Assembly (NCBI GenBank): GCA_051294905.1
Contig: CM119371.1
Location: 8,310,001-8,374,000, forward strand
Source of the DNA: Botryllus schlosseri
Lineage: Eukaryota
Length of the DNA: 64,000 bases
Direction of reading: 5' to 3'
Positions within the stretch are counted from its first letter, which is position 1, and the number at the start of each line of letters is the position of its first letter. This document shows, piece after piece, positions 14,682 to 29,484 of this stretch. The position numbers and the translations under genes were made by a program. The notes under the pieces were generated by a model. That model saw nothing but the letters and a program-made list of their open reading frames with translations. It was not told where the DNA came from and made no database searches.

Positions 14682-14960
14682 TCAACAATGGGACCCGCGC
14701 ACAATTATATGGCTGGATTTTCGCTGAATATTGACGACACCCACAAATCGAAAGATCTCTTTTTCCTGCACATCTATGATGCAATTATCCTTCCAATGAC
14801 TACGAATAACTTGAGATTCCGCAGGATTAATATCCGAATCAAATAATACGAGCGTATCTTTTCCAGCTTTCAAAACTTGCACTGACGCGTCCGCTCTATG
14901 TCGCAACACTACAATATGTGGCCATACAAAACGATGTATAGTTATTTTTTGTAGTACCAT
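14682..14960 (-). CDS. Conserved 92-aa protein of unknown function (homologue at 29209-29484)
   Basis: About 53/92 identical residues by manual alignment with the 91-aa ORF in the nested element; same start and stop positions. Confidence 0.85.
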   Translation of the reverse strand: MVLQKITIHRFVWPHIVVLRHRADASVQVLKAGKDTLVLFDSDINPAESQVIRSHWKDNCIIDVQEKEIFRFVGVVNIQRKSSHIIVRGSHC

Positions 14961-15478
14961 CCCTACGACTTATTTCAGATCGCAGTTTACTGAGTAGAGC
15001 TTAATACTAATACCTGCATAATTTTTTGCATGTCTAGAATAAGGCTAATTAAATCGATAGTAAAACGCCAGTGGCGACTAATAACGTTATAATGTAAGCT
15101 GCGGCGGTGCTACTATAATGTTAGGAGCTATTAAAGCCGAATACGCTGAAGTATAGCATAGATTTTGCATATAAAATGTATACACAAATTTCCTGTTAAG
15201 GGTAGGCTCTGCGAAGCTGCTTATGCCTCGATGATCATAGTACTTATGAGCTATTGGATAGCGCATATACAATGTATCATATAGAACTTCGTCACTTTCG
15301 GATAGTACATATACCCCTGGAATAGAACTTAGACGCTATAAAGATCGATGTTCGCCTACGAATTCTCGCTTTACTCATGTCGTATGCTCGATAAATTGTA
15401 AGTTGCGGCGAGCAACTCATTTTTAAAGTCCCTAAGACGCTATTGAAATGAACTCTGACTCGCTATTATCCTCAAACC

Positions 15479-16320
15479 ATGGAATTATCACGAGCATCAC
15501 CTTCGCTCACTGAAGAAAAGGATGAAATTACATCCGGAGCATATTCCTTGGCGAGGAATTATATCATGTACGAACTCGACGGCTCATGCGTTAAGGCAAA
15601 TACGAAAGCAGAGAGAACCTTACGGCGAGTTGGGGATGAAATGTTTGAGCGACACCGAACTATCGTAAACGCGCTCTCCAAACGTCTTCGCTATAGTGAT
15701 GTAGAAGTCAATGAAAAATATGAAGAATATTCACCCGACGAGCGAATGTTCCTGATGATAGCTGATGGAATTTTCAAAGATGCCCAAGAAAATTGGGGCA
15801 GGATTGTCTCCCTTTTTGTGGTCGCTAGCATTCTTGCTCGGAATAAGGAGGATGAACATCGCGGTGATCATATAGAAGGTATCATACAGACAGTTGGGAA
15901 TTACATTGGTAGTAGAAGACGAAAGTGGATAGCGCAAAACGGAGGATGGGTAAGCGATTTTACAAGCCTTACTAAGGATTTAGGAATTATTATCTATAGC
16001 TCGAGGTACTACGATCCCCAGAACCCTTATCATCCCTCGATAGGGAACCTTAGATTCCACCTTATAATTTTGTTCTCAACTTTTCCCACAAAGCACTGTA
16101 ATTTACTTTCCAAGCGCAGCGAACTTCGAATTACCTAACAAGTAGGCTACGCTAACTTTCTGTAAGATTTGGAAGGCTAACATTTTTATTATTGTTTCAG
16201 GACAGTTTTGTAGGATATTTCGATAACACAACATTCGGTAACAATAAAGTTTGGAAGAGTCTCATGTTTGCTGGAATTGGACTGATGTCTATTGCAATGG
16301 CATTAACACGACAGCGATAA
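15479..16320 (+). CDS. Bcl-2 family protein, 2 exons (15479-15949, 16201-16320), 196 aa with C-terminal membrane anchor
   Basis: BH3 LRRVGDEM, BH1 NWGRIVSLF, BH2 WIAQNGGW|DSFVGYF joined across a GTAAGC...CTAAC...TTTCAG phase-0 intron; exon 2 ends in LMFAGIGLMSIAMALTRQR. Confidence 0.93.
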
Positions 16321-16477
16321 GTACAGCTCGAAAGGGCTTCAAAAAACGTCCAACAAAACTTTCAAAGATTTCCATGGCATTCTTCAAAAATAGTTCGATC
16401 ACTGATGGCGTCATAGCGCCTTTCGTTGCTATATGTTTACGTATAAGCAATATCGAAGTGCTTTGAGTTATGGTTAT

Positions 16478-16484
16478 TATAAAA
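16478..16484 (+). promoter_or_regulatory. Candidate TATA box upstream of the ATPase / virion module
   Basis: TATAAAA ~50 bp upstream of ATG 16535. Confidence 0.4.
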
Positions 16485-26300: not shown

Positions 26301-27829
26301 ACATCCGACTTGTAACTGTATCGTTTACCTAACCGAGTTGTATGCACAGTTTGATATTTTTTGTTATTTGGTAATTGTTGAATATACTACTTCGAAATAC
26401 TCCCTTGAACGTAATTTCCATCATCGTAATAATCGAAGTACATTTGTGTCGAATTCGTAACAGCCGACTATGACATGATAAATTTTTGATAAGTTATGCT
26501 TGGAAGATTGGTTGTATATCACGAAAAATAATTACCGCTCATATTCATACTGTTATCCATTGTTCGGTATTTTCAAACGAGTAAACTTTATTACTTGAGT
26601 TACTCCGCTTAATGCAAATGTAAACACAACCGTCTTTCAACATCGCAAAGACATCGATACAAAGTATACAATCAAACGCAACAAGTTTTACTTTTGTAGG
26701 TTGTGTATGGTTATCCTGCATAACTCATTTCTTACCAAAGCCATATGAAATATATTCATGTTACACGAAGATATTCACTCATGCTACAAACCTGTACAAT
26801 GATTGGTGGTGCTTTCAAACTGTTTCGATACCTCAAGAACTTTATTGTCTGAATGGTTGTTCATGTATCATAATAATCAAGTAATTCAACACAGAACTAG
26901 TATTAACAGAAACACCAAAGTTGTTTACACAAAAGTTTGTATGTGTACAGTATACGAATACCATGTGTAAGTCCAGCACAATTGTGGTATCCATACGAGT
27001 TTAGTTAACACAATTTACGACACCGAGGTCGCGTCATCTTTCGTAAGACAACAAACCAAGGCTTCGGGATATGTCCATGTCATAGCAATGAATCAGCTAC
27101 TCCAACAACAGAGTGCATATGTTTTCTAGTTACGGTGCTTACATCTTACACACAAATCAATCTACTTTGCTAACGAAAAGTGGTGAGTCATCATATGGTT
27201 ATCCTCACTAGTAAAACATACTATCATACAAAATGGTCGTTATAGTTTGCACACCAACGGTACATCGTACAAGTAACAAGTCTCGAGAATCCAGTTATTC
27301 AAAAAAACGTGAAAGTATTTCTACACCAAGTCGCTATGTTGACGAAAGCGTATATTGTAATATCATGATCGATTTGCATTCGTTGGTCACAAACTGTCAC
27401 TACTCTAAATAATTCTTTTTCACTCAAACACAAACGCACACTTGTCACCATTCGTTTTCATCAAGTACGAGTTCAAGAAACTTACTTACTACGACATGAA
27501 TTTTTATTTTTATGTTGTGTAAATAGGTAATAATTAATTCAAGTAACACTATATCAACATCATCGAGTTGTGCTAATAGATTTACATGTGGTCTTGTGGT
27601 TTTCGTCGGGATATACAGCACGAACTAACTGTAGACTCCTCTCTGTTGTACAGCTACTCGGTAATCGAAATGCATTAACATGTAAACAACGATCTTGTTT
27701 CGTCACACCAAAAATATGTTCACTGTCGCGATACTCCGCACAAGACGTGCATAGCCTTTTCAAACTCGTAATAGTATACCGACGTCAAGCGATAACGTTT
27801 AACAAGACCAACGACACTGAACCAACGAC

Positions 27830-28420
27830 GTTTACCTATGTAAAATTACCACTTTCACTTGCCAGTCCATCGTTTACCTGACTAAACATATTATTTTCCT
27901 TTGGAGATCTGACGTTTACCCAGAGTAAGAAACCATTTTCACTTGTAAATATTTTTTTTCCTCGGCTAACAAACCTTTTTTCACTTGGAAATATATTTTT
28001 TCTCTGGGTAACAAACCTTTCTCACTTGGAAATATATTTTTTCTCTGGTTAACAAACCTTTTTCTCTGGTTAACAAACCTTTTTCACTTGGAAATATATT
28101 TTTTCTCTGGGCAACAAACCTTTTTCACTTGGAAATATATTTTTTCCCCAGGTAACAAACCTTTTTCCCTGAGCAACAAACCATTTTCACTTGTGGGTCC
28201 GTCGTTCACCCGAGTAAAAATATCATTTTCCTTTGGAGATCCGACGTTTACCCAGTGTAACAATACATTTTCACTTGGAAAAATACTTTTACCTAGAGTA
28301 ACTAGTCATTTTCTCCTGGGGTAACAAACCCTCTTCATCTGGAAAACTATCATTTGCCTGAGTACCAATACCGTTTTCACTTGGAAATACATTTTTTCCC
28401 TGGGTAACAATACCATTTTC
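27830..28420 (+). repeat. AT-rich ~41-bp degenerate tandem repeat (mirrored at ~30870-31460)
   Basis: Units like TTTTCACTTGGAAATATATTTTTTCTCTGGGTAACAAACC. Confidence 0.85.
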
Positions 28421-29208
28421 TTTTTGAAAACTGACAACCACACCGGACAATTTGATATTTTTGTATATTGTTACAACGGACAGTGACAAAATACACACCA
28501 ACAACGACTCCGATACATTTGTCTAATCAAATATTCACTTGCTCTGATGCACCCCATCAAAATCATTGGTTACTCACATACAATAACAATGTGCTGTTGT
28601 ACATCGACATGTATGTTTTCGGAATTGGCGAATAAAGGGGTTTCCGATATGTCCGTGATGTCTGGGTTCGTGCTTTGGATTTTCCAGAGTCCAAATGTCT
28701 GAATAAAACACCTCCTCGACTTTGGTAACTGGTTGATAAATGTATAGTGGTGTTCGCAAAACGGGTGAAGTTATGTTCCCCATCGCGCTAACAACTCCGG
28801 GTTACTTGTGAGTTTCCTCAGGTCTGTTTACTATATTGGGTCTTTACTGATCAATACATGTCGCTCCAGTCAGCTGAAACCGGATCACTAATATGTGTGT
28901 TGGGGCCTGATCCGGATATTCACTCATGAACCAAAGACCAATATTCAAGTAAACATGTTACAGACCGTGTTTTGTCTCCATGAAAAATACCAATGCATAC
29001 ACCATCACATACAAGTAACGTCACGATTGTTCACAAGTATTCGCGTAAACGAGGTGTACATACAATGTATCGGTGTACAAACATCATGGAAAACAAATTC
29101 ATGTTCTCAAGTATCATCATGCGACGACTCTGTACATTCAATGTGGGCATAGATGACACACGACATGATACAATGGACAGTGCATTATGCATACCGATAT
29201 ATTCTCAG

Positions 29209-29484
29209 TCAAATATGCGAACCGTGTACTATCACGCATCCCGATTTTCGCTGAATATCCACAACACCAACAAATCTGTACATTTCTTTTCCCTCGACCT
29301 CGACGATAGAGTTGTCATCCCAATGTACCAATCGAGTGTATGGTTCATCAGGTGTAAAATCCAAATCAAATGTCACCAAGGTATCGTTTTTCATTTTCAA
29401 TATTTCCACCGCTGCATCTTGTCTGTGTCGTAAAACAACGGTATGGGGCCAGAGGAATCTATGGACAGTTACGCGTAGTCCCAT
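29209..29484 (-). CDS. Conserved 91-aa protein of unknown function in the palindrome loop (homologue of 14682-14960)
   Basis: HRFLWPHTVVLRHR, DTLV, HWDDN, RFVGVVDIQRKS, IVHGSH blocks shared with the outer-element ORF. Confidence 0.85.
   Translation of the reverse strand: MGLRVTVHRFLWPHTVVLRHRQDAAVEILKMKNDTLVTFDLDFTPDEPYTRLVHWDDNSIVEVEGKEMYRFVGVVDIQRKSGCVIVHGSHI

Follow-up and report, generated by a model that had tools for sequence, protein, structure and literature searches.

A small orphan protein gene shared by a Polinton-like element and its palindromic derivatives in Botryllus schlosseri

We analysed a 64,000-nt stretch of the Botryllus schlosseri genome (contig CM119371.1, positions 8,310,001 to 8,374,000; hereafter the window, with positions counted from its first letter), in which a Polinton-like element (the outer element, 12176-38964) contains a second, palindromic element (22912-36348), and each of the two carries a copy of one small gene. 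The p92 gene (14682-14960, reverse strand) is a stand-alone open reading frame (ORF) of 92 aa (10.6 kDa; isoelectric point (pI) 9.5) in the accessory module at the left end of the outer element; the p91 gene (29209-29484, reverse strand) encodes its 91-aa paralogue (pI 6.3, thus slightly acidic) and lies in the loop of the palindrome. The two are members of an orphan family (p9x) of stand-alone proteins of about 91 aa, predicted to be all-beta. A single lineage of Polinton-like elements in the B. schlosseri genome carries this family, and no other gene is retained as constantly by their palindromic non-autonomous derivatives.

The two proteins align without gaps, with 51 of 87 residues identical (59%) and 75% positives (BLASTP, E 3e-39), in agreement with an initial annotation of the window, which had put the identity of the two ORFs at about 58%. 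That annotation had also described the flanking DNA as unalignable, and indeed blastn between the outer element and one arm plus the loop of the palindrome (22912-30135) aligned the ORF region only (29243-29471 vs. 14716-14944; 69% identity); likewise, when 13 outer-element proteins were used as tblastn queries against this arm and loop, nothing matched except p92. It had placed the ORF of the nested element in the unique loop, where it lies (29209-29484 within 29158-30135), and had named it the sole convincing ORF of the palindrome, with only broken frames in the arms; p91 is the only conserved ORF that we find there, and the arms are without any ORF of at least 110 aa. An antisense ORF of 146 aa (28993-29433, forward strand) covers most of p91 and extends into the left arm, its arm portion being mirrored at 30112-30300; because its counterpart at p92 is only 72 aa long, we take it as a by-product of the p91 sense frame.

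We estimated dN/dS (the ratio of non-synonymous to synonymous divergence) by the Nei-Gojobori method with our own script. Between p92 and p91, dN is 0.33 and dS is 1.94 (dN/dS 0.17), with differences at 42 of 60 synonymous sites and 56 of 213 non-synonymous sites (Fisher p = 1.6e-9). The purifying selection proposed in the initial annotation holds more widely: dN/dS is 0.09-0.38 between 12 sub-lineage representatives and 0.07-0.12, at a dS of 0.20-0.46, within the p91 lineage (four copies, L064 and L070-L072, picked without regard to protein identity), and the synonymous excess has a Fisher p of 1.6e-9 to 1e-12 across comparisons. A ratio near 1, which the same annotation had named as a refutation of its reading, is not seen overall, but it does occur in one decaying sub-lineage, the C6 type (L039, L056, L057, and L069), which evolves neutrally (dN/dS 0.6-1.3 in six pairwise comparisons of four copies), has in some of its members lost the usual C-terminus, and accounts for many identical-score matches in the p92 genome search. 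Throughout the selected lineages the start methionine and the stop are at equivalent positions, and in p92 a stop codon lies three codons upstream of the ATG. At 12 p91 loci, the ORF, taken with some 105 nt on its upstream side and 220 nt on its downstream side, is 98-99% identical and the flanks are about 90% identical, a contrast that is biased, as these loci were picked as the best protein matches. The similarity and the constraint are far beyond chance, and p9x is a real stand-alone protein gene under purifying selection.

The family is uncharacterised, as had been claimed: no Pfam, PDB-sequence, profile, or viral-contig relative was found, nor a match to any well-known family. Pfam searches of p92, p91, and 16 members gave no significant family, and a PDB sequence search with p92 gave no matches. 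A PDB profile match to beta-glucuronidase (E 0.82) was rejected, as were Pfam matches to CS_DNAAF11_C, TriTu, M157, and ACTMAP (E 0.008-0.18), which are sub-threshold, lineage-limited, or off-register. For example, the CS domain PF23602 matched only 4 of the 16 members, all from one sub-lineage (E 0.008-0.1; 13-17 bits vs. a cut-off of 27), with protein residues 2-62 on profile positions 58-117 of 120, a register that misfits a whole domain. A search of 1.84 billion representatives returned four matches, of which only P0003 (91 aa) is genuine; P0004-P0006, being tandem-repeat or cadherin-like, owe their matches to short stretches that recur within them. A word-indexed search of a 5.8-billion-protein collection returned two matches with p92 and six with the profile. 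All six database relatives are 90-95 aa long, and there was no fused or longer homologue among 7999 scored candidates (weak evidence, according to the tool itself). None of the 30 pattern matches from a scan of IMG/VR was confirmed; the ESM Atlas gave no usable match to p92, and its matches to p91 (all <0.9, to bacterial capsid-fragment clusters with low recognition) were rejected.

The protein had been thought to be probably beta-rich, and both AlphaFold runs predict beta strands only. The p92 query gave a predicted local distance difference test score (pLDDT) of 51 and was not taken into the fold search; the p91 query, with 18 sequences, gave a nine-strand all-beta sandwich (pLDDT 81.9, predicted TM-score 0.75), a moderate top model, the other four models of the run scoring only 40-70. 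Weak fold matches were found in three libraries including PDB and BFVD, almost all of them to alpha-crystallin/CS chaperone domains and with scores below the level that the tools call meaningful. The modelled p9x would resemble alpha-crystallin (HSP20) and CS/p23 domains in being an all-beta sandwich of about 90 aa, but it shares no sequence or profile similarity with them. Small heat shock proteins (sHSPs) have as hallmarks a “GV-hydrophobic” strand and a C-terminal I-x-V, and it was these that had suggested an sHSP. This identity is unsupported by a genome search with the HSP20 model PF00011, in which none of the 11 matches is among the ~1200 p9x loci, and by hhalign, which aligned 18 p9x sequences to six sHSP domains of the same genome at a probability of 0.1% over one column (both profiles are shallow, with an effective number of sequences of ~1.7-1.8). 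PF00011 also gave no match to p92 or p91 at E <= 0.01, and none among the 16 members at E <= 10. We therefore class p9x as an orphan predicted beta-sandwich and do not assign it to the sHSPs.

The C-terminus reads S-H-C, S-H-I, or S-R-I (Ser-x-Cys/Ile) in 15 of 18 aligned members and is gone in the remaining three (L056, P0008, and P0009). Class-I PDZ-binding motifs are S/T-x-hydrophobic at the C-terminus, a pattern that p9x fits by its residues. Early proteins of DNA tumour viruses, such as adenovirus E4-ORF1 and papillomavirus E6, bind PDZ domains in this way; p9x resembles them as a small early or accessory viral-type protein ending in Ser/Thr-x-hydrophobic, and differs in that it shares only the three-residue pattern, with no homology. 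Conserved Arg/Lys residues are R10, R20, K31, R71, R80, and K81, and the profile and fold searches gave no DNA-binding fold or motif.

A contig of 536 nt from X1 (whose library type is only guessed) spans 14494-15029 over p92 and is colinear with the genome. RNA run X24 has about five reads in the p92 3′ region, in an orientation that fits minus-strand RNA in the usual stranded library; runs X22 and X21 have none there, and from X21 (organism B) no read could be placed anywhere. No splice joint from contigs, or from reads placed on 12653-22911, touches the ORF.

The outer element is 13,346 bp long without its insert, and has perfect terminal inverted repeats (TIRs) of 477 nt (12176-12652 and 38488-38964) that start with AGTAGTG and are flanked by a 6-bp target duplication, CATGGA (12170-12175 and 38965-38970). 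It encodes a BIR (IAP-like) protein, p92, a Bcl-2 homologue, an A32-type ATPase, an rve integrase with a chromodomain, a capsid protein, and a gene in the protease position. The BIR gene (13322-13903, reverse strand; Pfam PF00653, E 2.9e-18) is downstream of p92 on the same strand, and the Bcl-2 gene (15479-16138, forward strand; PF00452, E 1.2e-20) is divergent from p92 across a 518-bp spacer. Among the core genes, Pfam recognises rve (E 2e-14) and Pox_A32 (E 9e-9), and weakly a double jelly-roll-like domain (E 0.0095). Just upstream of the ATPase gene there is a remnant of a family-B DNA polymerase (PolB) of the protein-primed type, comprising its last ~73 codons (16319-16528, forward strand; 42% identity over 73 aa to the PolB of L075/L076, tblastn E 5e-9), and no ORF of at least 110 aa in the window has polymerase similarity, so that the polymerase expected of a Polinton/Maverick is lacking. 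The element is therefore a derivative that has lost the polymerase/terminal-protein region, and it must depend on polymerase supplied in trans. The name Polinton used in the initial annotation fits its ends (like those of the palindrome, TIRs starting 5′-AG with a 6-bp target duplication) and its core genes (rve integrase, A32-like ATPase, and double jelly-roll capsid), and needs a qualifier for the deleted polymerase.

A PolB-bearing Polinton (Pfam PF03175, E 8.9e-9) is present in the same genome (L075-L077, G000:C1:5927001-5953000), and its morphogenetic genes follow the order seen in the outer element; the ATPases are 49% identical, the integrases 53%, and the major capsid proteins (MCPs) 33%, the latter over 426 aa. 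It contains no p9x: tblastn gave E >= 0.008 with no alignable length, and the profile E >= 0.3 over 260 frames. As for the distribution of p9x in other Polintons, a point raised by the initial annotation, this single PolB-bearing element of the same genome was examined.

The nested palindrome measures 13,437 bp. A unique loop of 978 nt (29158-30135), which holds p91, separates its two arms (22912-29157 and 30136-36348; 6246 nt, 99.2% complementary); the ends of the palindrome are AGTAGT...ACTACT (starting AGTAGTT), and it is flanked by a 6-bp target duplication, TTCGCT (22906-22911 and 36349-36354). Subterminal tandem repeats of 32 nt (also 89/121 nt) at 22947-23316 are mirrored at 35971-36312, and a 21/41-nt tandem array near the loop (27925-28432) is mirrored at 30873-31367. 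By tblastn with the outer-element proteins, it has no rve integrase, A32-like ATPase, or capsid gene. On a different chromosome, the outer element has a copy (L073+L074, C8) that crosses the junction 22911|36349 with a single TTCGCT, that is, as an empty site; the palindrome is therefore a true insertion, non-autonomous, and of the same integration type as the outer element. These features (duplication, Polinton-like ends, empty site elsewhere, and no enzyme genes) support the label of a satellite that it had been given, and the ends and the duplication suggest that a Polinton-type integrase mobilises it. The termini of the two elements are alike over roughly the first 17 nt only. Their lengths differ by less than 1% (13,437 vs. 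13,346 bp), which could reflect a packaging size limit or coincidence. Complementarity is unevenly spread along the arms: the outer 5285 nt (23047-28331 and 30961-36245) match at 100%, and the inner 839 nt beside the loop (28319-29157 and 30136-30974) at only 98%. Random decay after insertion would not produce such a pattern, which suggests either an imperfection near the axis that was inherited, or homogenisation of the outer arms.

Genome searches gave 1193 first-look candidates for p92 and 1202 for p91, sets that probably overlap, and 150 matches per query were scored. Stop-free frames were found in 136 of the 150 p92-type and 145 of the 150 p91-type matches, and all 150 of the latter are at least 90% identical to p91. 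The two types are arranged differently: 100 of the 150 p92-type matches form inverted neighbour pairs within 45 kb (50 pairs, with the genes pointing outward in 48), as against none of the 150 p91-type matches; thus p92-type genes are mostly in inverted pairs in palindrome arms, and p91-type genes are single, in loops. Among 11 other p91 loci, nine have the same loop with both inner arms and two are truncated; the recurrence of loop and arms shows that the palindrome is repeated in the genome rather than a product of misassembly. Elements of the C4 type are palindromic over their whole length and consist of the left-end block (16.6 kb, 99.6% self-complementary), with p92 and Bcl-2 mirrored; the C6 type is built in the same way (14.8 kb, 99.6% self-complementary), with p92 and a Bcl-2 remnant only; and in the C2 and C10 types p92 and Bcl-2 lie within palindromes that are nested or otherwise more complex. 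Exactly p92 and Bcl-2 are thus retained in three of the derivative lineages (C2, C4, and C10 types). Bcl-2 is under weaker constraint than p9x in the derivatives (dN/dS 0.22-0.71), and, being constrained, it indicates that these satellites do keep host-interaction genes.

Two side observations concern the arrangement of the copies. At one locus (L031-L034, G000:C10:21030001-21066000), a 26.8-kb element with AGTAGT/ACTACT ends has four Bcl-2 and two p92 copies, laid out as two adjacent palindromes (4907-17915 and 18016-27890, in joined coordinates) inside a larger palindrome. In addition, 9 of the 150 scored p91-type matches are less than 30 kb from one of the 150 scored p92-type matches, when about 2.7 would be expected by random placement (Poisson p 0.002); it seems common for these elements to be nested or clustered, as they are in the window.

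What p9x does can be approached from its neighbours and from its pattern of retention. The initial annotation had put forward interference, exclusion, or host modulation as candidate roles. We tentatively favor, as possible rather than probable, a role as a lineage-specific accessory host-interaction protein alongside the Bcl-2 and IAP homologues. Under this proposal p9x would act in trans, on the host cell rather than on element DNA, as a small beta-sandwich adaptor co-expressed with the anti-apoptotic Bcl-2 and IAP homologues; it would keep the cell alive or permissive during element replication or integration, maybe via its conserved C-terminal Ser-x-(Cys/Ile) end of class-I PDZ-binding form, and the satellites would retain the gene because their spread relies on the same cellular state. 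The gene would be accessory rather than core, since the one PolB-bearing Polinton examined has the same morphogenetic order and lacks it. A host-interaction role is favored because p92 lies between the BIR and Bcl-2 genes, and the joint retention of p92 and Bcl-2 in the C2, C4, and C10 types counts for the same role; a DNA-binding role is disfavored because net charge is not conserved between the paralogues. The neutral evolution of the C6 type, which nevertheless gives many identical-score matches, is compatible with a factor that elements could borrow in trans. Several points weigh against this proposal. Neither biochemistry nor homology ties p9x to a host pathway, and association with neighboring genes is weak evidence; the commonest carrier, the p91 palindrome, retains p91 after losing Bcl-2 and IAP. 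Furthermore, a public good should decay in a parasite of the helper, so that the strong selection on p91 suits a private function better. The PDZ idea builds on three residues and a general motif definition, and the AlphaFold model puts residues 83-89 in a predicted strand, leaving little free tail. Finally, RNA support for p92 is minimal, and the absence of p9x was judged in one PolB-bearing Polinton (n = 1).

If selection on p91 does reflect a private function, p9x could be a specificity factor that recognises the DNA of its own element, at the terminal repeats, the subterminal ones, or the axis of the hairpin, or else the element's nucleoprotein, and recruits the helper's replication, packaging, or integration machinery, each lineage keeping its own version. 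It would then be a counterpart of the small proteins by which phage satellites hijack their helpers. We consider this somewhat unlikely, although it would account for p91 as the sole conserved ORF, with a dN/dS of ~0.1, of a palindrome of which 150 or more copies were scored out of 1202 candidates, and although lineages differ both in the protein (59% identity) and in the element ends (alike over about 17 nt), the subterminal tandem repeats of the carriers are particular to each lineage, the palindrome is about as long as the capsid-encoding element, as expected if it is packaged, and p9x has several conserved Arg/Lys residues. On the other side, the PolB-bearing relative has the same morphogenetic module and no p9x, so that packaging and priming are not generally p9x-dependent in this group; the paralogues are 3 pI units apart, with p91 on the acidic side; the searches found no DNA-binding fold or motif; and the C6 type gives its many identical-score matches although its copy evolves neutrally. 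A bolder version, which we regard as unlikely, is that the palindromes are packaged, defective-interfering-like satellite genomes of a Polinton-like virus and that p9x is their private hijacking factor; a lineage-specific p9x would then steer helper machinery for replication, packaging, or integration to the satellite ends or hairpin. It is quite improbable that p9x is a minor part of the virion or of its assembly (a beta-sandwich protein acting as cement, as decoration, or in a chaperone-like way) that satellites supply in addition: the predicted small beta-sandwich, the weak fold matches to chaperone domains in three libraries, and the position of p92 within a capsid-encoding element would suit such a part, but the HSP20 model and hhalign found no link of p9x to sHSPs, p92 is in the accessory block on the strand opposite to the morphogenetic genes, and the PolB-bearing relative does without p9x. 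That p9x is no independent gene at all, but an exon of a larger spliced gene (the alternative considered in the initial annotation) or a frame that stays open owing to recent copying or to an overlapping cis-element, is extremely improbable. Some sub-lineages do have longer upstream open frames (110-181 aa), minus-strand splicing occurs elsewhere in the outer element, and the 146-aa antisense ORF overlaps p91; yet the upstream extensions are not conserved between lineages whereas the methionine and stop are, no longer homologue appeared among the 7999 scored candidates and all six database relatives are of the same small size, no read joint touches the p92 ORF, and the antisense frame shrinks to 72 aa at p92. 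In addition, the protein is conserved at a dS of ~1.9, near saturation, a pattern that DNA-level constraint would not yield.

Elements of other kinds share some of these traits. Incomplete or defective adenovirus genomes are inverted duplications of one genome end; the C4 and C6 types are likewise left-end palindromes (16.6 and 14.8 kb), near the size of the capsid-encoding element, and differ from them as integrated, amplified, and diverged lineages with target duplications rather than transient by-products. Phage satellites such as P4 and the phage-inducible chromosomal islands (PICIs) encode small hijacking proteins. The palindrome resembles them as a dependent element, without replication, capsid, or integration genes, that keeps a small selected protein; unlike them, it lives in a eukaryote, a paralogue of its gene is present in the helper-type element, and it shows no sign of capsid redirection or helper interference. 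If the satellite-genome reading is true, these elements are a eukaryotic endogenous counterpart of the arms race between phage satellites and their helpers, one genome holding hundreds of copies, both fossil and live. To our knowledge, non-autonomous mobile elements normally have no selected genes; here a high-copy hairpin derivative keeps exactly one small selected protein, and its capsid-encoding relative keeps the paralogue beside anti-apoptotic genes. Whatever its action, p9x marks a function that is indispensable to these elements, and the family, which is without a name, a Pfam model, or a solved relative, is an entry point to the spread of Polinton-like viruses and their parasites in animal germlines.

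Among published systems, adintoviruses are close: the article text of Starrett et al. 2021 (PMC8502044) reports Bcl2 and IAP homologues and unnamed conserved ORFs as their accessory genes. As described there, adintoviruses and animal Polintons share with the outer element a small lineage-specific ORF beside Bcl-2/IAP homologues, adenovirus-like morphogenetic genes, and an rve integrase; the present carrier differs in having no polymerase, and its gene also occurs in palindromic derivatives, which are absent from that text. The conserved adintovirus proteins without an assigned function include those called “Adintoc”. Foldback transposons (Drosophila FB and Galileo; abstract of PMC3573991) are like the palindrome in their very long inverted arms, internal tandem repeats, short unique middle, and high copy number; the palindrome differs from them in its Polinton/integrase-type ends (AGTAGT...ACTACT) and 6-bp duplication, like those of its resident element, and in a loop that encodes a selected 91-aa protein and no transposase. 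Literature searches (the supplements of PMC8502044 being outside their scope) found no description of p9x or of protein-coding palindromic Polinton derivatives, and those on Polintons together with Bcl-2 found no account of a Polinton-borne Bcl-2; those on Polintons with foldback or palindromic structure gave nothing pertinent, and for non-autonomous Polintons or Mavericks a paper on Tlr1 came up. What is new here is an orphan accessory gene together with a coding, foldback-shaped Polinton satellite.

Some minor observations concern other genes. In the PolB-bearing Polinton, three ORFs of 109, 121, and 150 aa without an assigned family occupy the position that Bcl-2, p92, and BIR have in the window; a separate ORF of 162 aa lies upstream of the 1197-aa PolB, and the two ORFs are alike in their N-terminal regions (“SQNWQ..KSYVVN..VYNIR” in both). 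The Bcl-2 ORFs of the window (15479-16138) and of the C10, C4, and C2 loci agree up to an “NGGW” motif and then have wholly different tails. In genes of the Bcl-2 family a conserved intron immediately follows the Trp of NGGW, and the Bcl-2 gene here may be spliced to a downstream exon. Four CT..AC joints in the outer element (16657>18987, 19116>21603, 19752>21603, and 21652>22534) correspond to minus-strand GT..AG introns; they come from X1 contigs, two of them being also backed by X24 (2 reads) and X22 (1 read), and therefore indicate spliced RNA antisense to the integrase/capsid genes and heading toward the Bcl-2/p92 side. As many as 224 of the 229 X24 reads fit only partly, and nearly all are piled at 12653-13336, over the 3′ part of a 181-aa ORF; the pile-up continues into dissimilar sequence, and its likely source is a related transcribed sequence elsewhere in the genome.

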